Assembly (NCBI GenBank): GCA_020632095.1
Contig: JACKGF010000001.1
Span: 326,638 to 390,637 of the forward strand
Direction: 5' to 3'
Length of the DNA stretch: 64,000 nt
Origin: Candidatus Nomurabacteria bacterium
GTDB taxonomy: Bacteria; Patescibacteriota; Minisyncoccia; Phycocordibacterales; UBA918
Notes under the pieces: generated by a model
Told to the model about the DNA's origin: nothing
The model's database searches: none
What the model saw: only the letters and a program-made list of their open reading frames with translations
Shown: positions 9,964-54,273 of the stretch, one piece after another
Position numbering within the stretch: the first letter of the stretch is position 1
Layout: the number at the start of each line of letters is the position of its first letter
Position numbers and translations under genes: made by a program

Positions 9964-10593
9964 TTAAGACCGACGAATTGGCAGACAGAGCGCAAGGTGT
10001 TCTAACAAGAATTTGTTTGAAGCACCTCTGGTCAATAAAAAGCGTGCTACGAACTCCAATTCACTCAAAATATCCGATTTTTCTTTTTTTATATATTGAA
10101 GTAAACCCTGCTTAATAGCTTGTTGCCAAGCAACATTCTTAGCTTTTAGTACCGTCTCAATATTTGACAACCGCTCGGCGTATGACAATCCTAGGAACTG
10201 CTCAAATTCTTCTGTCAGAGAGCTGCTGTCACTACCTAACCTGACTTCAAAAAAACGTGAAGCAAGTGTGGGTAAAACCTGAAAACCTTCTAACAAAATA
10301 AAAATGAATTTAGTGGAAACTGGTGGTTCCTCCAAAATTTTTAAGAGTGCATTCTGTGCCTCATGGGTAATAAAATCCGTCCTCACCACCAAAGTTTGAG
10401 TTTCAGTATTTTGTGGTCGATTGTTTGCAGTTGTGACCAACCTCCTAGCGTCATCAATTCCGAAACGTTCAATATAACTATCTTGTACTTCATCAAATTC
10501 ACCAAAACTAGCTAGATTAAAAGCTTGAACCGGTGAATGTTTAATCAAAATAGCATGATGAGGTGAATTCATACCCTCCATTATGACGCTCAT
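9964..10593 (-). CDS. holB: minimal DNA polymerase III delta'-like subunit (HolB-like, lacks P-loop region)
   Basis: It keeps the clamp-loader sensor motifs HEAQNALLKILEEPP and LPTLASRF but has no Walker A. At 209 aa it is much shorter than canonical delta'. Confidence 0.55.
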   Translation of the reverse strand: MSVIMEGMNSPHHAILIKHSPVQAFNLASFGEFDEVQDSYIERFGIDDARRLVTTANNRPQNTETQTLVVRTDFITHEAQNALLKILEEPPVSTKFIFILLEGFQVLPTLASRFFEVRLGSDSSSLTEEFEQFLGLSYAERLSNIETVLKAKNVAWQQAIKQGLLQYIKKEKSDILSELEFVARFLLTRGASNKFLLEHLALCLPIRRS

Positions 10594-42341: not shown

Positions 42342-44465
42342 TTATTTAGCTACCTCCAACTTCACATCGTCAACGTATCCGTAATCATAGAAACTACTTC
42401 CGTTCAGGATGAAGCGAAGAGCAAAGGATGAAAGGTAGTTTGTTTCAGCTGGAAGAGTAAAGGTGTAGTCGTGTAATTTACCATCCTCCTCAAGGTCATC
42501 ATCACTAATCCGAGTTAGCTCAACCCATTCTGAGCCATTGAAGTATGATGCTGCCATATATTCGTCTGAGTTGTCTAGACTTTTAGCGCCCATTTTAAAT
42601 GAAACTGTCACATTTGAATAATCCGCTAATGATATTGTTTTTTCAATACCACTTTCTCGACGAAAGCGTACACTATGGGTACCATTTTTGGGTGATTTAC
42701 TATTCCAATTAGCGAATCTGGTTTTATCCCATGAGAGTGATGACTCAAATGTGTCTAAGAAGATGATAGTTGACTGTACAGGGTCAGGAGTTGGTTGAGG
42801 ATTGGTTGCCGAATATTTCTCTAGATAATCTTCGACAGACCAACCGATGGTCTCTTGATCAAAAGCAACCTTCCACCAATTATATCCATTATCCGCACTT
42901 GGACCGGCTATCACGTATCCATATTGACCAGTCGGTATAGGTTTTATAACAGAACCTGACAAGGATGGTGAGGTCCGTAAATTCAGAGGTCCGTCACTAA
43001 CCCGTACCAAATCATTCAATGAGAATTTCATTGATGGGGGTACAGTCGTTGGATCTGGTGTAGGGTCTGGTGCTGGTGTAGGGTCTGGAGCGGGAGTGGG
43101 AACTGGAGTGGGAGTTGGATCTGGTGCTGGAGTTGGATCTGGTGCTGGAGTTGGATCCGGTGTTGGGGTAGGATCTGGGGCAGGTGCTGGGTTTTGGGCT
43201 AATGCTGGAGTAGCTAACATCATCCACCAACCCTTGGTGTGATCAGCTCCAGTGTAGTAAAGATATGGTTCTTTAGTTGTTGGGTCAAAGGTGATCTGTG
43301 GCGCAATAATCTCGTCTTTTTCAAGGATAACATCATCTTGAGTCAAGACAGGAGTATTACTTGTGCTCCAAGGACCAAAAGGTTGATCAGCGGTAGCGTA
43401 AAAGATCGCCTCTTTTTGATTGTAATCACCTGTTCTGACAGCTACAAAAGTGTCGTCAGGCGCCTTTGTTACTTGTCCTTCCATACCAATTGGTGTTTCC
43501 ACTATTTTGAAGTCACTCCAGGTGTGACCATCATCAACCGAAGTAGCTCCGATCATCCATACCATAGTGACAGAATTTGGCGGAGCGTTCCAACCAATAA
43601 AGGTTAAATATAGTATTCCGTCATGTTCGACCACACTTGGGGAGGTCATGGTGTAAACGTCTTTACCAGCAATATTTCCATGTTTAACTACTGGGGCTTC
43701 TGACTGTTTGTAAGGACCATCTACAGAGCTTGCTTCAGCAAGATAGATATCTGCTTGAAATAGATCTTCGTTTGGATAACCGATATAATAAATTTGGTGA
43801 GTGCCACTATCGGTCTTTCGATAGAAAGGAGTTTCTTTATTGATATCCAAGCCAGAAGGGCCAGTCTTATAAACCACCGGTTTACCAGCTTGCCAGTTAG
43901 TCCATGATGTACCGTGTACAAGCTTGATGGCTTGATGATCTTCATAATCACCAGAGTAGATCATATTAAAAGAGCCTGGTTTGTCTATAAACACATGCCC
44001 GTCAGCCGCTACCTCGTAAGTGTAGGCTTGATTGTTTATTTTGTCCCTAAAGACTGGATTATTGGTATAACGGTTCCAAATCGGAGTGGTGATAGTCTGA
44101 CCAGTGAAGGCGTATTTGCTCAGATTATCATTATTACCCGAAAACGCCATCGGTATTGTTTGGTTGAGTAAGCCTGAGTTTAGCAGAGCTTGTTCAGTGA
44201 GTGGCCCATAGACCTTACCACTGGCGGTAATGCCCAGTGATGCCTGCAAGGCTTGGACAGCGGTTGCTGTTTTGGTTAAATAATTACCAGTCTCTTCTTC
44301 AGAGAAATAACCAAGTTTTTTAAGGACAGACTGTAGTGTCACTACCTGTGAACTTGATTCACCATATTGTATTGAGGCAGTGGGTACAGGGATGTTTTTA
44401 GCTGTTGCAACAAATGGCTGTGCTGTGATTGCTACCGTAAATAGTAAGGTCAGTATTTTTTTCAT
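42342..44465 (-). CDS. secreted multidomain protein: peptidoglycan-binding domain + beta-propeller hydrolase-like domain + Pro/Thr linker + SH3b + C-terminal beta-sandwich
   Basis: It has a signal peptide (MKKILTLLFTVAITAQPFVATA) and a PG_binding_1-like segment (VVTLQSVLKKLGYFSEEETGNYLTKTATAVQALQ). An NPV/DG-rich repeat region suggests a GH43/32-type propeller, which is tentative. There is a (PAPDPT)n linker and an SH3b-like segment (NLRTSPSLSGSVIKPIPTGQYGYV...WWKV). Confidence 0.6.
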   Translation of the reverse strand: MKKILTLLFTVAITAQPFVATAKNIPVPTASIQYGESSSQVVTLQSVLKKLGYFSEEETGNYLTKTATAVQALQASLGITASGKVYGPLTEQALLNSGLLNQTIPMAFSGNNDNLSKYAFTGQTITTPIWNRYTNNPVFRDKINNQAYTYEVAADGHVFIDKPGSFNMIYSGDYEDHQAIKLVHGTSWTNWQAGKPVVYKTGPSGLDINKETPFYRKTDSGTHQIYYIGYPNEDLFQADIYLAEASSVDGPYKQSEAPVVKHGNIAGKDVYTMTSPSVVEHDGILYLTFIGWNAPPNSVTMVWMIGATSVDDGHTWSDFKIVETPIGMEGQVTKAPDDTFVAVRTGDYNQKEAIFYATADQPFGPWSTSNTPVLTQDDVILEKDEIIAPQITFDPTTKEPYLYYTGADHTKGWWMMLATPALAQNPAPAPDPTPTPDPTPAPDPTPAPDPTPTPVPTPAPDPTPAPDPTPDPTTVPPSMKFSLNDLVRVSDGPLNLRTSPSLSGSVIKPIPTGQYGYVIAGPSADNGYNWWKVAFDQETIGWSVEDYLEKYSATNPQPTPDPVQSTIIFLDTFESSLSWDKTRFANWNSKSPKNGTHSVRFRRESGIEKTISLADYSNVTVSFKMGAKSLDNSDEYMAASYFNGSEWVELTRISDDDLEEDGKLHDYTFTLPAETNYLSSFALRFILNGSSFYDYGYVDDVKLEVAK
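43041..43192. repeat. imperfect 18-bp tandem repeat (about 8 units) encoding the (PAPDPT)n linker
   Basis: ggagttggatctggtgct units recur with variants on the plus strand. They lie inside gene 42342..44465. Confidence 0.8.
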
Positions 44466-45442: not shown

Positions 45443-46423
45443 CTATACCAACACCTGCTCCGCAACTATTTTAGACATAACCAATATCTCGCCAATCGAA
45501 CCGCCACCTAAACGACCTTTGCCGTGCATGCCGTAAGCGCACTCCCCAAGCGCGTACATATTTTTAACGGTTGTTTCTCCGTATTTATTAATTTTGATGC
45601 CTCCCAGCACAAAATGTGGCTCTATATCAAGAGCAATCCGCTGTTCCCCGTTTACCGCAAATCTTTTTACCGTTTTTTGGTACTCTTTACAAATGTCGTC
45701 AAACCGATGGTGGGCATTGTGAGCGCGCACTAAATGATGAGTCAGTACGAGTCTCTGGCTTTTTTCATCCACAAAATCGAAACTATATAAATCATCACTT
45801 GGAATACACACTCCTTTTGAATAAAATGGATGCTTCATTACCAAATCCTGATACAAAACCCTACACCCAGCCTCTCCAGCAATCTCAAACATGTTGTTTT
45901 TAACCCGCTCGTCTTCAAACTTCTCGGACAGCCTCGCCCTCAGCCCACCAAAACAAAACACCACTTTTTTACAATGAATCTCCCCTTTTGAAGTCTGAAC
46001 TTCAATATATTTACGTTTCTTATACACTGAAGTCACTTCTGCATAGACTCGACTAAATTCAGACTCTTTACGTATTTTGTTAAGTAGTGACATCGGGTCA
46101 CTCACCTTTGCTCCTAAGTATGAAGGCTCCATTTTGGTTAAATGACTCAAATAGGTTAACTCATCATCAATATTGTTCACAAAGACATTGACCAGTTGCT
46201 TGTTAGCTTTACCATAACTAGCAGCATTCATTGATTCTTTGAGTGAAGTTTGTTTAACCCCTCTAGAGCGAATATTGTAATACGACTTATCGCTAACTGT
46301 TTTCATGTCTGGCGCTACTATCAAGAAGTTACGATTGTTGTTTGCAAGTAAATGATGCGCTAGATACAGTCCCGAAAATCCTGCCCCGACGATTAGTGTA
46401 TCTGTAGTTTTAATTGTTTTCAT
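45443..46423 (-). CDS. FAD-binding-2 family flavoprotein (NadB/SdhA/FrdA-like FAD domain only)
   Basis: N-terminal dinucleotide motif LIVGAGFSGLYLA is present. C-terminal YALGECAYGMHGKGRLGGGSIGEILVMSKIVAEQV parallels the NadB/FrdA segment (AIGEvsyTGLHGANRmasNSLlEclVyG). At 326 aa it lacks the capping and C-terminal helical domains. Confidence 0.55.
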   Translation of the reverse strand: MKTIKTTDTLIVGAGFSGLYLAHHLLANNNRNFLIVAPDMKTVSDKSYYNIRSRGVKQTSLKESMNAASYGKANKQLVNVFVNNIDDELTYLSHLTKMEPSYLGAKVSDPMSLLNKIRKESEFSRVYAEVTSVYKKRKYIEVQTSKGEIHCKKVVFCFGGLRARLSEKFEDERVKNNMFEIAGEAGCRVLYQDLVMKHPFYSKGVCIPSDDLYSFDFVDEKSQRLVLTHHLVRAHNAHHRFDDICKEYQKTVKRFAVNGEQRIALDIEPHFVLGGIKINKYGETTVKNMYALGECAYGMHGKGRLGGGSIGEILVMSKIVAEQVLV

Positions 46424-46445
46424 TTTAGTTATGATTATTCTTTTT

Positions 46446-46475
46446 ATGTTGATATTAAAAAACTGCCTTAGGGGG
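46446..46475 (-). terminator. terminator downstream of the channel-fragment ORF
   Basis: AAAAAACTGCC-ttaggg-GGCAGTTTTTT. Confidence 0.6.
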
Positions 46476-46630
46476 CAGTTTTTTATTAATGGAGAAAAAT
46501 AAATCTACACATCAAAACACAACCGCCCCAAAAGCCAGGCAGTCCACCAAGATGTATTGATTTGACGATAACTATTCATATATAAAGTATACAACCCTCA
46601 TCAGAAAAATCCAGTCTCAATATTTAAACT

Positions 46631-47047
46631 TTACTTATCTAACCTTGATGAGCCGAGCAGACGGCGTTCGACCGATTGACCGACGATTGCTATCAGTAAA
46701 CCAAAGAGTAATAAGCTAGTGAACTGAATACCAACAACCAAAAGTTTGGCTGAGACTGACAGTTCAACATTACCAATACCACCACCAAGCAAGGCCATTG
46801 TAACCCACAAGATAGATGACGGAATATCTTTGAAAAATAAGTTTGTATCGCCCTCTACTTGATAGAGTAAACTACCAAATGCTACAACAGCAATAAACAG
46901 AATGATCAAATAAATTTTAATTGATATACTCCTCACCTCCTCCACCTTATTACTATTTCCGTTGGCAAATTTGCTTATTCGCGCTAGTTTAGCCAGTCGC
47001 GACATTCTGAGAAATTGGAGCAGGCGCAATATGCGAGAAGCCTTCAA
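46631..47047 (-). CDS. voltage-gated ion-channel-like fragment (S4-S5-pore-S6 only; no ATG start, probably 5'-truncated)
   Basis: It begins with an S4-like segment (RILRLLQFLRMSRLAKLARISK), then two TM helices flank a pore-like loop (TMALLGGGIGNV). The reported M is a TTG codon. The frame stays open upstream into the adjacent MITE-like element. Confidence 0.4.
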   Translation of the reverse strand: MKASRILRLLQFLRMSRLAKLARISKFANGNSNKVEEVRSISIKIYLIILFIAVVAFGSLLYQVEGDTNLFFKDIPSSILWVTMALLGGGIGNVELSVSAKLLVVGIQFTSLLLFGLLIAIVGQSVERRLLGSSRLDK

Positions 47048-47065
47048 GAAAGTGAGATTGAGGTA

Positions 47066-47173
47066 ATGGGGATACGTCCGTTATTTATGCATTTTGTGTG
47101 TTCTAATATTAGCTAAATTCCATTATAAAATTACAACACAGATTCTGGCATTATAACGGACGCCTCCCCATTC
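47066..47173. mobile_element. MITE-like element copy A (about 108 bp, 20-bp terminal inverted repeats)
   Basis: TIRs are AATGGGGATACGTCCGTTAT ... ATAACGGACGCCTCCCCATT. The AT-rich core is identical to the copy at 52123-52236. Confidence 0.6.
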
Positions 47174-47302
47174 ACCTTAATTTGCTCCGCGTGCTGGACG
47201 AGTTTCGAACCTTTGATTGAGCGAGATTAGAAAATGAGTTGCAGTATTTTGAGCTTGTAAAGAATTAGGCCTGGCGGGAGTGCCGCCAGGCCAGAGTGCT
47301 AC

Positions 47303-47812
47303 TTACGCAGCAAGAAGTTCGTCGTAGTCCTTGCTGAGCAAAAATGAGAGGGCTTCCACCCAAAGAGTTGCTTTTGCGAGGTCTTGTGCGATGCGCTTTA
47401 CTCCGCGCGCACCAGGAGGAGTCCAGAACTTATTTGCTCCGAGAGGATATCTTGCTTCATAGAAAGAAAAAATTCCCTCGCTCATCCCGTTTCTACCCCC
47501 GACGTCAAGAATGTCGCATACGGTATTCCACTCAAACCCTTCACGGGTATGGTTGAACACCACAGCCCCTACGACCATACCGATGTCCCAGTTGACTTTA
47601 CGGAGGTGGTCAAGATGCTTCCCTCCAAGCCAACCAGTAATGGCTGCATCCTCGACAATCGGCCAGCTCCATTTGTGGCAACCAGCACAGACGAGGTAGA
47701 AGTCTTTTTCTCGGTTGAGGTGAACGTGCGATTTTAATTCCGAGAACGTACGAAATTCTTCTTCAAAGGTCATTTCAAGCTCCTTACAGTTAGGAGTTAT
47801 GTGAAGCCACAA
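47303..47812 (-). CDS. hypothetical protein
   Basis: 169-aa ORF with no recognised family. A likelier start is MTFEEEF. Confidence 0.4.
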   Translation of the reverse strand: MWLHITPNCKELEMTFEEEFRTFSELKSHVHLNREKDFYLVCAGCHKWSWPIVEDAAITGWLGGKHLDHLRKVNWDIGMVVGAVVFNHTREGFEWNTVCDILDVGGRNGMSEGIFSFYEARYPLGANKFWTPPGARGVKRIAQDLAKATLWVEALSFLLSKDYDELLAA

Positions 47813-47902
47813 TTAGCAACACAAAATAATGATACCATAGTAATACTACTGCGTCAAGTAATGCTCCGGTAGATTCAATCTTGAAGTGCAACACCCGTAA
47901 GT

Positions 47903-48556
47903 TCATAGAACAAAGAATGTTCCAGCTTGATGTATCTTGTGCCAACGTTCGTAATCAAGATACCCTTTGTCCATGACGTAGTACGCACCACGCTCGAACG
48001 TAATCTCATCTAGGAAATTCACGTCGTTCACTCTGCCTTCAGTGATAGTGAAAAACGCAGGAATAGAGCCATTTAAATCAAGTTGCATGTTCAGCTTAAT
48101 CGAAGAATGTTGAGCATCGAACCGGGCCCAGCCGAACAGACTTAAACACAAATCTATCACCGTTGAGTCTAGCAGATAGACTGTCGCATCTAAATCAAGC
48201 TCAATGATTTCTTTTGACTTTGGATCCATTGGTCTGGCTCTGGCAATGAGCACCATCGCTAGGTCTCGGTAGATTCTCCAGTCTCTTTTCTGGTTGGCTG
48301 AGGCCAAGGTGTTGCGGGCGATTTTTTGTCTAAAGCCAAGGTGATACAACTTTTCTTCGTGAGCACCCAGACAGGTGATAATATCGCGAAGACTTTCCCG
48401 GTATGCCAGCTGACCGAAGATCATGGCTGTGAATTGTTGTCGGCAAGATAATTTTCGAATGCGGTACTCACCATTATATCTCTCCACACATTTTCTAAAC
48501 TCATAATCATCGACAAACTCCATAATTTGAGAAAACACGTAGACACCTCGATTCAT
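47903..48556 (-). pseudogene. IS4-family (DDE_Tnp_1) transposase, N-terminal fragment only
   Basis: FSQIMEFVDDYEFRKCVERYNGEYRIRKLSCRQQFTAMIFGQLAYRESLRDII...LDSTVIDLCLSLFGWARF...YVMDKGYLDYERW matches the N-terminal half of IS4/ISH8-type transposases. The ORF stops after 217 aa. No C-terminal continuation or inverted repeats were found. Confidence 0.65.
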
Positions 48557-49153
48557 AATGATAGATTAAGTCTGATAAACTCAATCTATTATTACTGAAA
48601 AAACTGGTTTTGGATTGAAATCGAAAAAACCTAATTATACAAATGATACTTATAAATTAAGGGTTGTTTGAGATTTTGGGAAGTTAAACGGGACACTAGT
48701 GGGACAGGGACAATATTTTATTGATTTTTGTGGTGTGATTTTTTCTTCCAGTAGCAGGAGTTTCTCGGCTTACACCGCAGTACAGGTTGTCGATATTTTC
48801 GCTTCCTGCGGTCGCAAAATACCTGACCAACCTCTACGAATCCTGATAAAAGCTCTCCCAGAGCTTGCTCTGGCGGCAGGAATTCTCGCCTTACAGGCGC
48901 AGTACCCCAATTGGATATTTTATTTCCTTTCAGTCATAAAATACCTCAATCGGGTTTCGAATCCTGACGTAACAGTCCCCCGGACTTTTACTCCGCCGGA
49001 GCATTAAAAACAAAGCCACGCCCAAAGGCGTGACTAAGTTTTTATATGCTCGCTTGGAGGGACAGTTTTCGAACTTTCGATTGGGCAGGTATATACTCAG
49101 ATTTTGACTTCCACCTTAAGTGTATAAATCGTTTAGTAGCTATTGCTCGATAA

Positions 49154-50497
49154 CTAGTAAACCCTTTCCATATCAGCTCCGTCAGAGGAAATAGTCTGAG
49201 CTTTACCATCTTTTACTTTTTTGAATGTAATTACTTCTCCAGGTGTGCCAAAGCCAATCTTGTCTTGGTTTTTGAATGAGTGCTGTTTTACTTTTTTATA
49301 TTTAGACCAAGCCTGTACAGGATTAGATGCTGAAGCTCCAAACCCCACCAAATCATCTCCCGTACTTACAATAACCATGTCACCCCATCGATTGCGGTAC
49401 ATGCCTGAGTATGGCTCATTAGGAATAGACTTTATATCCTTTGAATCTTTGAGGTCATAAATCAACCTCATTAGGTTATCACTAACAGCTCCAGCAGTAT
49501 TTGACTGCGTATTTGTAAGGACAATTACTTGGACATTATCTTCAATATGGCTAATGGCATTAGTTACATACCCAGCAAAACCTCCTGAGTGTCCGTACGT
49601 TTGTTGACCTGTGACAGTTTCGATACAAAGTCCTAATCCATACATTTCGTCTTTACTAACAATACTCTGCACCTGTCGCATTGCTTTTCGAGACTCTCTA
49701 TTAAGCACACTCTTCTTACTATCAGGATGTAAGGATGATAAGAACAAAGCCAAGTCTTGCACATTTGAAATAAATCCAGTTGCAGGAGCATAGGTATTTG
49801 TTTTAATGTTCGGCTCTTTTTGTCGATCTATCACATCTGGTGTCCAGCGTTCATACCCTCTAGTTAGTTTTGCTGGTATCTTATCCGGTAAATCTGGAAG
49901 AGTATTTTTTAATCCGAGTGGTTTGGTGATATTTTCAGTGACATATTTATCATAAGAGTCACCAGATACTTTCTCTATAACAGCTCCAAGTATGGAGTAC
50001 CCATGATTTGAGTACTTCATGGTCGTAGCATTATCAAACACAATTGCTTTTGAAGAGACCGTACCCTCAAGCTTAGTTGGAAACTTATCATTTACCCATT
50101 GCTGTGCATCACCATCTCGGAAGAGTCCAGCATTGTGCGAGAGTAGCTGCCGGATAGTGATGTTAGAAAGATTAGTTTCTTTAGTCTTACCCTTAAACCA
50201 AGATAAATAATCAGAGACTTTATCATCGAGTCGAAGTTTACCTTTTTCTTGGAGTTGCATAATGCTTACCGCTGTAAACATTTTAGACATCGATGCAACT
50301 CGAAATTGGGCATCTGTCTTCATCTCTATATCTTTTCCAATATCGGATAGACCAAATGCGCTAACATATTTAGGTACACCATTTACTGCAATACACACCA
50401 CTGCGCCAGGCGTATGGTCATAACGGATTTTCATTGGTAGCCAGTTATCTACAATTTTCCCCGCAACTTTGATTGCTTCAGTTAATTCTTTTTTCAT
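49154..50497 (-). CDS. serine hydrolase of the beta-lactamase/transpeptidase superfamily (class C-like)
   Basis: SxxK (ASMSKMF), YxN (YSNHGY) and HSG (GHSGGFAGY) motifs are present in the correct order. The protein is 447 aa. Confidence 0.7.
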   Translation of the reverse strand: MKKELTEAIKVAGKIVDNWLPMKIRYDHTPGAVVCIAVNGVPKYVSAFGLSDIGKDIEMKTDAQFRVASMSKMFTAVSIMQLQEKGKLRLDDKVSDYLSWFKGKTKETNLSNITIRQLLSHNAGLFRDGDAQQWVNDKFPTKLEGTVSSKAIVFDNATTMKYSNHGYSILGAVIEKVSGDSYDKYVTENITKPLGLKNTLPDLPDKIPAKLTRGYERWTPDVIDRQKEPNIKTNTYAPATGFISNVQDLALFLSSLHPDSKKSVLNRESRKAMRQVQSIVSKDEMYGLGLCIETVTGQQTYGHSGGFAGYVTNAISHIEDNVQVIVLTNTQSNTAGAVSDNLMRLIYDLKDSKDIKSIPNEPYSGMYRNRWGDMVIVSTGDDLVGFGASASNPVQAWSKYKKVKQHSFKNQDKIGFGTPGEVITFKKVKDGKAQTISSDGADMERVY

Positions 50498-50500
50498 AAT

Positions 50501-50824
50501 TTATTCAAAATCTAATAATGGAAACACATCCAAAGCTACTTCTTCGTATGGGTGATTATCTTTCAGAACCTGCTTTAGTAGTGGAAGTTGGTCCTTGGTA
50601 CAAACAAACTCAATCACTACCTCATCTACTTCTTCTAGTTTACCAGCTTCTCCAATATGAGGATTAGCTTCAACATTTGGCATAAAATAGCCCTTTCCTT
50701 TAGTCACAAAGCTACAGTGGCTATAGTTGCCTATTTTTCCTATTCCTGCGTCACCTATAGCCATTCTGACCCTTTCGGAGGCGTCTTCTGGACAGGTTAG
50801 CCATACTTTTACTCGTTCTTGCAT
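50501..50824 (-). CDS. small protein resembling the NIF3/YqfO metal-binding insert domain (tentative)
   Basis: 107 aa. DAGIGKIGNYSHCSF...HPYEEVALDV resembles the HPYEEPA-containing region of NIF3-family proteins. Confidence 0.4.
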   Translation of the reverse strand: MQERVKVWLTCPEDASERVRMAIGDAGIGKIGNYSHCSFVTKGKGYFMPNVEANPHIGEAGKLEEVDEVVIEFVCTKDQLPLLKQVLKDNHPYEEVALDVFPLLDFE

Positions 50825-51254
50825 AGTAGGCAGTATATCAAAAAATCTTCACTTTAATGACATTTAGTTTGTAACTACAGAAAAAGAAATACTCGAAATA
50901 AACTCGAAAAAGTGTTAAATCCAGTCGACAAACTGTTTGTTTTAACTTTTAGTCTGTAACAACTTAAATTTAAAAAACGAGAGAGATAACCTGAGAACAT
51001 GCATTTTCATGTCGACAAGGTATGTTCACTTAGGTTTAAAACTCTGGCTAGGAGTTGATCTATGGCTGGTGAAGCAAGGTCTATGAATTAAAGATACCCT
51101 TAAGACTCTGCATGGGTAACGTAGTAACTGCGTTTTTCATACGTATCCTTTCTTATGAGTTTTTTGAACACCCAGTTCAAACTGAGACGTGTGAAGTAAA
51201 CAGTTTTTAATAAGAGAAGTCAACCAAAAGATCGAATCCTCTCGGAGGTACATA

Positions 51255-51283
51255 GAAAAAAGCACTATAAATAGTGCTTTTTT
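51255..51283. terminator. terminator-like hairpin inside a 550-bp noncoding gap
   Basis: AAAAAAGCACTAT-aa-ATAGTGCTTTTTT could act in either direction. It is immediately followed by a tRNA-3'-end-like remnant (…GGTTCGAACGTCC…CGGAGCAA on the minus strand). Confidence 0.4.
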
Positions 51284-51375
51284 CGTTGCTCCGCTGGGTG
51301 AAGGACGTTCGAACCGCTAGTTTTTAGTATATTTTATTTTCACAGGTCTGATTATTAAAGTATACTAGTTAGATT

Positions 51376-51855
51376 ATGGGCATCCTCTCGAGACATAAGC
51401 AAGAAATGGCGAAGGCTGAAATATTATACAAGGATGTAAAGTTTGTGTTTTGTCCTTACTTTAAAAATAATGTTACCTTTAATTCTGACGGATTTCACCA
51501 TTTGAGATACAATGGATCTGGTAGTGAACGTGAAAAAATATCTCAAATGAATAAATTCGCTTTATTACCTAAGGCGATTGAGATTATTAGCAAATCAGGT
51601 ACTTTGCAGCAATACCGAAAACAGTGGGGAGCGGTCGGTCGAAAAAGGAACTCTGATGGCTCAAGACCAATGAAAGAAATGGAGTATTTTGCATTTGAAG
51701 GAATTCTTGGGACTGGTGCAAATATGCTCCGGGTAAAAGCAATTGTTCGGCGTGCAGGTAATGGGGAGCCACATTTTTGGAGTGTTATGTCAGATGTGAA
51801 TCTTAGAAGAAAATCATCATACAAGCTTGCTTCAGACGATATCATTGATGAGTAA
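51376..51855 (+). CDS. hypothetical protein
   Basis: 159-aa ORF followed by a clear terminator. No family recognised. Confidence 0.45.
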   Translation: MGILSRHKQEMAKAEILYKDVKFVFCPYFKNNVTFNSDGFHHLRYNGSGSEREKISQMNKFALLPKAIEIISKSGTLQQYRKQWGAVGRKRNSDGSRPMKEMEYFAFEGILGTGANMLRVKAIVRRAGNGEPHFWSVMSDVNLRRKSSYKLASDDIIDE

Positions 51856-51863
51856 TAAAAAAG

Positions 51864-51886
51864 TCCCTCAAGAGAGGGATTTTTTT
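51864..51886 (+). terminator. rho-independent terminator of 51376..51855
   Basis: TCCCTC-aaga-GAGGGA followed by a run of seven T. Confidence 0.65.
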
Positions 51887-52037
51887 ATATGCCTGCCTTC
51901 AGCTTACAGAATATGTTGGCTGAACGGGGCTTTCGCCCACAGGCATATCTAAACTTTATACTAGGTGCTTATAAATTGCAAGAATTTTTGCTGAATTATA
52001 ATTAAAAAACAACTTAGGTTCGAACTCGTCCTATCAA

Positions 52038-52283
52038 GTAATGGGGATACGAAGTAATGGGGATACGGAAGTAATGGGGATACGTCCGTTATTTATGCAT
52101 TTTGTGTGTTCTAATATTAGAAGTAATGGGGATACGTCCGTTATTTATGCATTTTGTGTGTTCTAATATTAGCTAAATTCCATTATAAAATTACAACACA
52201 GATTCTGGCATTATAACGGACGCCTCCCCATTCACCTCTCCCCATTCACCTCCGCCTCCCCATTCACCTCCTCCCCATTCACC
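52038..52283. mobile_element. composite of nested/tandem MITE-like copies (copy B) abutting tRNA-Asn 3' end
   Basis: The left TIR unit gtaatggggatacg occurs four times, one of them attached to a 50-bp partial core. Then comes one full copy (52123-52236) identical to copy A. After it the right-TIR end tccccattcacc is tandemly repeated about four times up to 9 bp from the tRNA. Confidence 0.6.
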
Positions 52284-52291
52284 TTAATTTG

Positions 52292-52363
52292 CTCCGGCGG
52301 CAGGATTCGAACCTGCGACCAATTGATTAACAGTCAACTGCTCTACCGCTGAGCTACACCGGA
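52292..52363 (-). tRNA. tRNA-Asn (anticodon GTT)
   Basis: The minus strand reads TCCGGTG-TA-GCTC-AGCGGTA-GAGC-A-GTTGA-CTGTTAA-TCAAT-TGGTC-GCAGG-TTCGAAT-CCTGC-CGCCGGA-G. It folds as a canonical cloverleaf with anticodon loop CU-GUU-AA and discriminator G. No CCA is encoded. Confidence 0.85.
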
Positions 52364-52567
52364 ATGAAAAGAAAATTAGAATCACCATAGACTCCTTTAA
52401 TTCTTGTTGTGAACGATACAAATACTTTTATATCGAACGTAGCTATACCCCATCTAACAATGATGAAGTAGTGCTATTGTACAGAAAAATTCTGGTAATT
52501 CAACTACACACAATGACAATTATCGGGTATTACTTTACCGACCTAAAATCTCAAGTACAATTGAACT

Positions 52568-53431
52568 ATGCCTGAATTACCAGAAGTAGAAACCGTTAGA
52601 ATGCAGTTAAAGAGCAAGGTGGTTGGTAAAACCATTACTAGCGTGGAGGTTTTTCATGCTAAGAGTGTAAATAATGATGAAACTATTGAAGATAGGTTGG
52701 TCGGGAAAGTAATTGCGGAAATTGACCGAATTGGGAAATTGATGATTTTTTCTTTTGTTAATGAGGATAACTTGTTTTTATTGGCTCATTTGAAGATGAC
52801 GGGGCAGTTTTTTTATTTGGATGAAGGTGGTGAAGCGGTCGGTGGCGGTCACTCAGTGACCGCCACCGACCGCGACCTCCCTGGTCGCCACACCCGCGCC
52901 ACTATCCACTTCACCGACCACTCCGCCCTACACTTCAATGACATGCGAATTTTTGGTTATCTTAAACTCACTGACAAAGCCGGCCGAGACGCTGCCAAAG
53001 CTCGCTTCGGACCCGAACCAATCAATCCCAAATTCGATACTGAATGGTTTTACCAAAAACTAAAAAAGCGAAAAACTCCCATCAAAGCCGCCCTACTCGA
53101 CCAAACCTTTATCGCTGGTTTAGGTAATATTTACGTTGACGAAACACTGTGGCGGGCCAAGGTTCGCCCTACACGCTTGGCCGACAAAGTCACCAAGAAA
53201 GAGGCGGCGGCTATCGCCGCCGCCTCCCGTGATGTCATGAATGAATCCATCAATGTCGGTGGCACCACCTTCCAACATTTCAAAGACACCGGTGGTAAAA
53301 ACGGCAATTTCAAAGACTACCTAAAAGTTTTCGGTCAACAAGGTAAAAAATGCGAACGTTGTGGTGGTACAATCGAAAAAATCCGCTGTGCAGGACGCGG
53401 TACGCATTATTGTCCCAGTTGTCAGAAGTAG
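52568..53431 (+). CDS. mutM: formamidopyrimidine-DNA glycosylase
   Basis: N-terminal MPELPEVE, an H2TH region and a C-terminal zinc finger (CERCGGTIEKIRCAGRGTHYCPSCQ) are present. Confidence 0.9.
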   Translation: MPELPEVETVRMQLKSKVVGKTITSVEVFHAKSVNNDETIEDRLVGKVIAEIDRIGKLMIFSFVNEDNLFLLAHLKMTGQFFYLDEGGEAVGGGHSVTATDRDLPGRHTRATIHFTDHSALHFNDMRIFGYLKLTDKAGRDAAKARFGPEPINPKFDTEWFYQKLKKRKTPIKAALLDQTFIAGLGNIYVDETLWRAKVRPTRLADKVTKKEAAAIAAASRDVMNESINVGGTTFQHFKDTGGKNGNFKDYLKVFGQQGKKCERCGGTIEKIRCAGRGTHYCPSCQK

Positions 53432-53448
53432 CGTGCTAAAATAAATAA

Positions 53449-54273
53449 ATGCTAGCCAAATCTCTTACCTTAGGGTTAATTATAATAATATTCATCAACG
53501 TTTTCATGCTTATGAATGGCCGAGATTCAGACAATGAAGAATTAGTTGAGGATGACACTTCAGAGAAAATAAAAATTATTGAACCGACTGCAAAAAACAT
53601 CAACAGATCTTATGATGAGATAGTAAGTGAATATAACGAAACGGGTGGAATTGAAATTTCTGGGTCAGAGTACAATTCTAATAGGGAGATTCAAGACTTT
53701 GTTGATTTAAATAGCAAAAAATCTACCTTAAGTACAGAAACCCAAGCAAACTACTGTAAAAGTAGGCCTTTGGAAATATCTACCTCTTCCATCAAGAGTT
53801 TTGATAAGGGTCTAGTCTTTCCAAACCTTAATTACCACAATGAACGTTGGGGAGACGGCGACACCTTGTCCTCATTATGGCTAAGCTGCAACAACGACTG
53901 GTCTCGCTCCCCGTCAGACCCAATCACAATCTATACCCCAAGCTCAAGCTGTCACTTAGAGAATGATTTTACATGTAACTACTGGGTTGACTATAACCCA
54001 GATGAAAAGCCACCTTTCCAGGTTGCATACAATCATGTAGACAGTTGGGCGGTTCACGAATCTCACTATGTTAGATATAATCTCGACCCAGCTTACACAC
54101 TCATTGACTCTAGAAAAATTAAATCATTCGACACAACTCTCTATGTCTTTGCTGGAAATGACAGGTATGTGGTTTTGACAGACGATAATACTTTCTCACG
54201 CTTTATCGAACTGAATATGAATATGGAACTAATGACATCCTACGTAGACCAGATTGTTTTGCGAAATAACTAG
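53449..54273 (+). CDS. hypothetical membrane-anchored protein
   Basis: An N-terminal TM helix is followed by an approximately 240-aa Asn/Ser/Asp-rich extracytoplasmic domain with several Cys. Confidence 0.45.
   Translation: MLAKSLTLGLIIIIFINVFMLMNGRDSDNEELVEDDTSEKIKIIEPTAKNINRSYDEIVSEYNETGGIEISGSEYNSNREIQDFVDLNSKKSTLSTETQANYCKSRPLEISTSSIKSFDKGLVFPNLNYHNERWGDGDTLSSLWLSCNNDWSRSPSDPITIYTPSSSCHLENDFTCNYWVDYNPDEKPPFQVAYNHVDSWAVHESHYVRYNLDPAYTLIDSRKIKSFDTTLYVFAGNDRYVVLTDDNTFSRFIELNMNMELMTSYVDQIVLRNN

Follow-up and report, generated by a model that had tools for sequence, protein, structure and literature searches.

A probable internal-deletion MITE of a Patescibacteria Y1/RAYT-like transposase element, with stuttering ends, at a tRNA-Asn island hotspot

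The window, the 64-kb stretch of a Candidatus Nomurabacteria genome analysed here, carries two copies of a short element. In a self-comparison of the window, 47060-47177 and 52120-52237 aligned with 99% identity over 118 nt, in agreement with the sequence-only reading of this DNA, which had called the two copies essentially identical. Because the conserved terminus runs 4-5 nt outside AATGGGG, we refined the limits of the element to 47061-47177 for copy A and 52121-52237 for copy B, 117 bp each and both on the + strand. Copy A consists of AGGT plus the left end up to the right end plus CACCT and is free of stutter (arrays of partial ends) in the window strain. Its left terminal inverted repeat (TIR; 47065-47084, + strand, AATGGGGATACGTCCGTTAT) is of the 'TA' type and precedes a TGTGTTCTAATAT box conserved family-wide, and its right TIR (47153-47172, - strand, AATGGGGAGGCGTCCGTTAT) is of the 'GG' type. 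AATGGGGATACGTCCGTTAT occurs on the + strand at 47065, 52073 and 52125, and AATGGGGAGGCGTCCGTTAT, its inverted partner with 2 mismatches, on the - strand at 47153-47172 and 52213-52232. The 20-bp terminal inverted repeats that had been proposed are thus present, and shuffles of the window contained no match to the 20-mer terminus. The TIRs can be extended to ~47 nt at 72% complementarity. The longest coding potential in the 117-bp unit is a single ORF of 4 codons, and the unit folds into a long hairpin on either strand (-47 to -48 kcal/mol, z = -8.2).

Copy A contains a promoter-like site (47122-47151, - strand; ATGCCA, an 18-nt spacer and TATAAT, a match to the consensus only). It adjoins a transposase ATG, which the window element retains along with little more, and corresponds in position to the region upstream of the transposase start in the full-length elements described below. 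Read from 47151 to 47122, this site is directed at an ion-channel-like ORF on the - strand (46631-47047) that starts ~15 nt from copy A and whose similarity to the Ion_trans profile is confined to the C-terminal part (positions 91-234 of 241). This ORF may be truncated and may be transcribed from the candidate promoter within the MITE.

The 4.8 kb between the copies hold a truncated IS4-like transposase and a beta-lactamase-fold gene. The former, a DDE transposase (47903-48556, - strand), is reduced to DUF4372 and the first half of DDE_Tnp_1, and contigs from other samples break at this gene. For the ORF at 47303-47812, public assemblies contained no record. An inverted pair of 16-17 nt, GGACGAGTTTCGAACCT (47196-47212) and AGGTTCGAACTCGTCC (52016-52031), bounds the inter-MITE segment, each member lying 5-20 nt from a MITE; the pair could represent island ends or decayed tRNA T-arms. 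Elsewhere in the window, a perfect 19+19-nt palindrome (52835-52873; GCGGTCGGTGGCGGTCACT A AGTGACCGCCACCGACCGC) lies within the coding sequence of fpg (formamidopyrimidine-DNA glycosylase) and may be an in-frame palindromic insertion. On the - strand, 42342-44465 encode a secreted-looking protein of 707 aa with a long low-complexity linker of Pro, Thr, Asp and Ala (PAPDPTPTPDPTP...).

The sole tRNA that ARAGORN and Rfam called in the area is a tRNA-Asn (GTT; 52291-52363, - strand; 74 bits in Rfam). The 3' end of this tRNA is followed, after 6 nt, by copy B and its extra right-end units. Adjacency to tRNA 3' ends, which had been noted for the element, holds for copy B and its real tRNA-Asn but not for copy A, next to which there is only a tRNA-3'-like fragment (47182-47211, - strand). 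Neither ARAGORN nor Rfam called this fragment a tRNA; it is similar to 51286-51315 and appears to be an island junction or att remnant. A 13-nt right flank, TTAATTTGCTCCG, follows copy A at 47177-47189 (+ strand) and recurs after copy B at 52284-52296 (+ strand), where 52291-52296 lie inside the ARAGORN tRNA-Asn and 52289-52290 just downstream of its 3' end. The last 8 nt of TTAATTTGCTCCG form the end of tRNA-Asn, and the same 8-nt end is common to the tRNA-like fragments at 47182, 51286 and, in degenerate form, 48865. tRNA-3'-like fragments bearing TTGCTCCG were seen at 47182-47211, 48865-48881 and 51286-51315, and in reverse orientation near 48985-49000. Both copies lie on junctions of the genomic-island array by the 3' end of tRNA-Asn.

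The ends at copy B are amplified, as the sequence-only reading had pointed out. Copy A has a single GTAATGGGGATACG (47063) and a single TCCCCATTCACC (47165). Copy B has four of each, GTAATGGGGATACG at 52038, 52054, 52071 and 52123 and TCCCCATTCACC at 52225, 52239, 52257 and 52272; about 0.3 occurrences would be expected by chance. To the left of copy B there are three partial left ends, or 'restarts' (52036-52120, + strand), of 16, 17 and 52 nt, each of which starts with AAGTAATGGGG and breaks off at a different internal position; the third (52069-52120) is a 52-nt partial left end rather than a short motif. To the right there are three extra right-end units (52238-52284, + strand) of 14, 18 and 15 nt, each ending with CCCCATTCACCT.

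A scan of one genome per species with a degenerate terminus pattern, AATGGGGANNCGTCCGTTAT, matched 18 genome loci. For most of them the title of the MAG contig names a Patescibacteria lineage, namely Paceibacteria, Kaiserbacteria, Saccharibacteria, Adlerbacteria or Minisyncoccia. The same pattern matched at least 120 further loci in metagenomes. The window copies had been taken for a nonautonomous TIR element, and this view gained its partner with matching TIRs, a Y1/RAYT-like element of Patescibacteria. This parent element is ~764-765 bp long and consists of two imperfect inverted ends of ~45 nt around one gene. The terminus of the parent ends reads (G)GGTA-AATGGGGA(TA/GG)CGTCCGTTAT and is followed by a TGTG..TAAT box ~25 nt inside, so that conservation reaches well past the search pattern. 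At several loci the conserved end leads directly into the 3' end of a reverse-strand ORF, and on the far side of the transposase gene lies the inverted end, ...GGACGTATCCCCATT. A near-full Y1 gene is bracketed or adjoined by such ends in 16 loci, and the same termini bracket a ~764-bp Y1 element in L014, L007, L008 and others. The left end of the window element is 85-90% identical to the ends of transposase-bearing elements. A tblastn search with the L014 protein as query found no Y1 transposase gene within the 64-kb window.

The transposase gene encodes 220-223 aa (223 aa for the L014 ORF at 1711-2382). The L014 protein matches Pfam Y1_Tnp with an E value of 8.7e-17. Its best NCBIfam model is REP_Tyr_transpos with 69 bits, which is below the 80-bit cutoff of that model, and the NCBIfam IS200 model gives 21.5 bits only. 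In an alignment of 30-34 homologues, the H-W-H motif and Tyr122 are invariant. The AlphaFold (AF2) model of the transposase has a pLDDT of 87, and its best fold match in the PDB is 4ER8, the E. coli TnpA-REP bound to a REP hairpin (E 5e-7); the TnpA structures of ISDra2, IS200 and IS608 rank below it. At the level of sequence, phmmer found no match to the transposase among solved structures. A C-terminal extension of ~95 aa is helical in the AlphaFold model. No Pfam HTH or Bac_DnaA_C domain was found in this extension among 30 members, which beyond Y1_Tnp gave only scattered single-member Pfam noise at E <= 1. It contains the conserved motifs KGxPxG..W and RGPGRPK. The near-invariant, AT-hook-like RGPGRPK closes the extension (residues 186-220 of P0001) and, from its sequence, could touch the AT-rich sub-terminal DNA. 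A single end shows no stable sub-terminal hairpin like those of IS608 or of REPs.

Homologues of the transposase fall into 3470 protein clusters at E <= 1e-10. Among the best 120 of these 3470 clusters, every match with a named source comes from a Patescibacteria lineage, and the organisms named among the best homologues include Pacebacteria, Taylorbacteria, Parcubacteria and Minisyncoccia. Many homologues lie on contigs of ~1 kb, which hints that the elements are multi-copy or strain-variable. One contig, L057, carries two divergent Y1 paralogues (640-760 and 10060-10110; 66% nucleotide identity), each of which has a separate TIR (core GGGGTCAG) and a separate stutter; at one of the two, the restarts take in the last codons of the gene.

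When each left end was paired with the next right end, the spacings among the matches listed fell into discrete classes of 84-85, 103-119, 145-155, 474-480 and 763-767 bp. The 763-767-bp class comprises the full elements, and the 103-119-bp class includes the 108-bp spacing of the window copies. Among the matches listed, the 84-85-bp class has 41 pairs and the 145-155-bp class about 30. The internal sequence differs wholly between the size classes, and the termini are retained. In the 151-bp class, the first ~10 codons of the transposase are fused to its last codons, and L006 is a larger deletion derivative that keeps the first 28 codons. These graded remnants of transposase codons identify the MITEs as classical internal-deletion derivatives of the Y1-transposase element.

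The MITE-size and deletion-derivative pairs among the matches listed represent 80 unique flank contexts after removal of duplicate flanks. Target-site duplications (TSDs) had been expected for a mobile element; in these 80 pairs we found none of 2-5 bp at any offset, and the sole signal of the test was the palindromic TA inside the repeat. However, this absence is no argument against a Y1-derived MITE, since it is what is expected for Y1/HUH enzymes of the IS200/RAYT type. Among the matches listed, conservation of the flank ends at -5 with a consensus of GGGTA before AATGGGG, which places the true terminus ~4-5 nt beyond the motif recognised earlier. The two ends of an element co-vary: among the unique pairs listed, 71 are TA/TA and 13 are GG/GG, and the rest, apart from the window copies, differ by single changes. 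Hybrid TA/GG ends are present in the window copies (47065-47172 and 52125-52232) alone among all pairs listed, which may make the window MITE a poor transposase substrate.

The family as a whole is clearly dispersed. On L067, a contig of 2.3 kb, four 151-bp copies with 94-99% identity lie in different flanks. At L022 (233-367) an 85-bp MITE lies between 20-nt direct repeats, TCTCCGAACTTTACTACTCA, unlike all other copies; this may reflect insertion into a repeat or a local duplication. Outside sites A and B of related strains, which have a 13-nt flank in common, the 108-bp subfamily was not found, and its specific 23-mer, GGGGATACGTCCGTTATTTATGC, had no match in metagenomes. A BLAST comparison of the flank pairs with all loci retrieved recovered no empty site and gave only repeat-confounded matches and stutter-length alleles.

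Overall, we consider it very probable that the window element is a MITE that arose by internal deletion of a ~764-bp element of the RAYT branch of HUH/Y1 transposons (IS200/IS605 superfamily) in Patescibacteria. This is supported by ends homologous to those of elements with a transposase, by graded deletions, dispersed contexts, absent TSDs and co-varying ends. The MITE would thus comprise the two ends and the start codon region, the remainder of the parent being lost, and since it keeps no more than these parts it would be mobilised in trans. By analogy with TnpA-REP and IS608, we infer a cleavage chemistry that proceeds through a single-stranded intermediate: in single-stranded DNA the two ends would pair into a hairpin, the Y1 enzyme would cut at the termini, and it would rejoin the ends without duplicating the target. 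The mobile parent is of a type common in Patescibacteria, and its ends are unusually unstable, or 'stuttering'.

The hairpin also invites a different explanation. The element could mainly serve as a functional structured RNA or regulatory hairpin, for instance as a terminator downstream of a tRNA, a processing element or an mRNA stabiliser. In favour of this, both strands fold into a very stable hairpin, tRNA-Asn is followed on its own strand directly by copy B, and there is precedent for such co-option of REP and MITE hairpins (Di Nocera 2013, PMC3733652). However, the arms of the hairpin are the transposase-associated TIRs, neither strand has a T-run after the hairpin, and the family has no consistent placement at tRNAs or gene ends. 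Moreover, the internal sequence differs completely across the size classes while the termini are kept. An Rfam search of 46000-53500 returned only the tRNA and sub-threshold miRNA and snoRNA noise; at the element itself there was a spurious miRNA match (E 0.017; 30.6 bits compared with a gathering score of 77). The suggestion of the sequence-only reading that the element might be a structured RNA thus found no above-threshold family, and the predicted hairpin is the TIR pair itself. We regard a mainly RNA-based or regulatory function as very unlikely, while regulatory co-option of the hairpin of a Y1-derived MITE is possible.

Placement next to tRNA 3' ends had likewise been considered a property of the element. 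Among the matches listed, an end lies within 150 bp of a tRNA at 5 of about 140 loci, compared with about 3 that chance would give on a rough estimate. We therefore rejected tRNA targeting as a trait of the family.

Stutter is a family-wide trait and not an oddity of the window locus. Among the matches listed, 97 of 321 unique end contexts (30%) have a further AATGGGG-like core motif within 30 nt outward of the end, and 115 arrays of 2-9 units are present with unit lengths of 7-69 nt. The arrays are laid out as flank, an end broken at one position, an end broken at a second position and so on, followed by the full element, and in 157 of 196 units among the matches listed the unit consists of an end prefix plus the bases that precede the terminus. 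L090 has seven restarts, and restarts in L007, L046 and L090 include part of the transposase gene. Related strains differ in their arrays at both window sites. At site B, the number of left-side units is 0 (L145, L147), 1 (L142) or 3 (window, L144, L146), and on the right side there are 4 units in the window versus 5 in L142. At site A, the right end has 1 or 4 units, and only some strains have a 35-nt left restart; L149 and L141 have four right-end units, and L141 has the 35-nt partial left end. These counts vary between strains whose adjacent look-up protein is identical. The alleles are not assembly noise, because the same ones recur in independent assemblies.

Two simpler origins of the stutter were considered. 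Nested insertion was rejected because whole elements cannot be assembled from the left units of 16, 17 and 52 nt and the right units of 14, 18 and 15 nt. Simple slippage is disfavoured, as the breakpoints of the units differ and no microhomology was seen at the junctions inspected; an array whose members each have a different inner breakpoint is not the expansion of a single slipped unit. Since all units begin with the terminus but break off at different inner positions, we prefer repeated terminus-specific cleavage and rejoining by the Y1 enzyme, in abortive or one-ended events, as the putative cause. A stronger version of this idea, which we put forward only tentatively and regard as rather unlikely, is that stutter is a direct footprint of RAYT/TIRYT chemistry, in which cleavage would be followed by rejoining or re-initiation at variable internal points and the arrays would turn over between near-identical strains. 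If true, the family would offer a natural and still-active model for how REP/BIME-like clusters and REPIN-like doublets form from an IS-like ancestor, and the formation of clusters and doublets would be ongoing in the reduced genomes of Patescibacteria.

The setting of the window arrays raises a further alternative, namely that the repeated AATGGGGA motifs are arm-type sites of an integrase and that the '110-bp element' is the att part of tRNA-Asn islands. Arrays of short motifs do flank a tRNA integration hotspot here, and sister strains have an integrase-bearing prophage at the same tRNA. In L019 (5884-7512), a prophage with a large serine recombinase of 531 aa abuts tRNA-Asn, with no MITE alongside. 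Yet the junction of this prophage is devoid of such motifs, and more than 100 unrelated loci that lack tRNAs and integrases have these motifs and arrays too, there flanking a Y1 gene. We consider an origin as integrase arm sites largely ruled out and highly improbable.

The tRNA-Asn nevertheless is an island integration hotspot, and this bears on how a Y1-derived MITE came to be present twice. In L142 (3700-7259; from the same sample as L019), the left flank of the site-B MITE is as in the window, and beyond TTGCTCCG a different, SEC-C-domain island occupies the same tRNA. Copies A and B could accordingly stem from one block duplication, by island integration at tRNA-Asn, recombination or gene conversion between MITE-bearing att regions, rather than from two transpositions. 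The 13-nt right flank TTAATTTGCTCCG is identical at both sites, and in two other samples (L141 and L149) the array of right-end units seen at copy B recurs unchanged at site A. The window diverges from L142 and from L019 at TTGCTCCG by the tRNA, more tRNA-like fragments bearing TTGCTCCG are present at 48865 and 51286, and the cargo between the copies is of the island type (IS4-like transposase, beta-lactamase-fold gene). However, the common block starts exactly at the left terminus of the MITE, unlike a random segmental duplication, and a transposase that used the outermost right-end unit, or a CGGAGCAAATTAA-like target, could yield the same picture. Furthermore, the tRNA-like flanks are strongly diverged past the 13 nt while the MITEs are 99-100% identical. 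On balance, the common flank, the stutter array found at both sites and the divergence of the islands make duplication or exchange of a block somewhat likelier than two transpositions, and we lean slightly towards it. This is compatible with the MITE origin of the element. The sequence-only reading had held that two copies from a single segmental duplication would speak against a mobile element; a single duplication fits the window copies, with their common 13-nt flank and the stutter array of sites A and B, but not the family, which is dispersed.

RAYT-type transposases and their REP and REPIN passengers are abundant, and their movement and origin are still largely inferred. The present family, which is very widespread in Patescibacteria, shows the whole series from a 764-bp TIR-flanked element through partial deletions to doublets of 85-152 bp, and its fast-changing arrays of partial ends may record how the enzyme cleaves and rejoins. 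The dynamic end arrays are the single feature that merits further study. For the annotation of CPR MAGs, the family accounts for many intergenic repeats labelled 'hypothetical' and many contig breaks, and the locus described here is flagged as a recombination-prone tRNA-Asn island hotspot.

The closest known kind of element is the TIRtron, which encodes a TIRYT, a RAYT-like gene product with long TIRs in place of REPs (Di Nocera, De Gregorio & Rocco 2013, PMC3733652). GGGGWSAS is common to many TIRtron TIRs, and TIR repeats are found singly, as dimers or in groups (PMC3733652). The Patescibacteria elements resemble TIRtrons in having a RAYT-like Y1 gene between long TIRs instead of REP stem-loops and in repeats that are single, dimeric or clustered. 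Their TIR cores GGGGATAC and GGGGAGGC match GGGGWSAS at 7 of 8 positions each, and the L057 paralogue core GGGGTCAG matches it exactly. We class these elements as a Patescibacteria family of the TIRYT/TIRtron type. TIRtrons probably correspond to subclass 2.1 of Quentin et al. (2018, PMC6006769), to which those authors assign most TIRYTs and whose proteins carry a C-terminal HTH. In 30 Patescibacteria proteins no Pfam HTH (Bac_DnaA_C, HTH_23, HTH_28) was found. The literature searched contained no description of this family in Patescibacteria. Compared with TIRtrons, the family differs in its Patescibacteria host and its very compact size of 764 bp, and a full internal-deletion MITE series and pervasive terminal restart arrays are documented in it.

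In REPIN-RAYT systems (Bertels & Rainey 2011, PMC3116915), too, a non-coding doublet of inverted ends of ~85-150 bp forms a hairpin and lacks a TSD, and the associated enzyme is a RAYT-type Y1 transposase; the best structure match of the present enzyme is TnpA-REP (4ER8). However, the arms of the Patescibacteria doublets have no GTAG tag and are not self-palindromic REPs, the copy number per contig is low, and the transposase scores below the NCBIfam REP_Tyr_transpos cutoff. The doublets are also plainly deletion derivatives that still contain transposase codons. Given ends with neither a GTAG tag nor a self-palindromic arm, the element is functionally REPIN-like rather than a REP-based REPIN. 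With the IS200/IS605 elements (IS200, IS608, ISDra2) the parent has in common the Y1 HUH fold, the Pfam Y1_Tnp domain, a size of ~0.7 kb and the lack of a target duplication. Classical members lack TIRs; their two ends differ in their sub-terminal hairpins, and insertion takes place 3' of a fixed target of four or five nucleotides. The present ends, by contrast, are inverted repeats with no conserved external target past -5. Since TIRs are present and a fixed external target is absent, the parent is not a classical IS200/IS605 member. Finally, classical bacterial MITEs such as Nezha, RUP and NEMIS/Correia are likewise non-coding, ~100 bp long, bounded by TIRs of 15-30 bp, IS-derived, intergenic and dispersed. 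They originate from IS elements with DDE transposases and have TSDs, whereas the MITE presented here is of Y1/HUH origin and has none.
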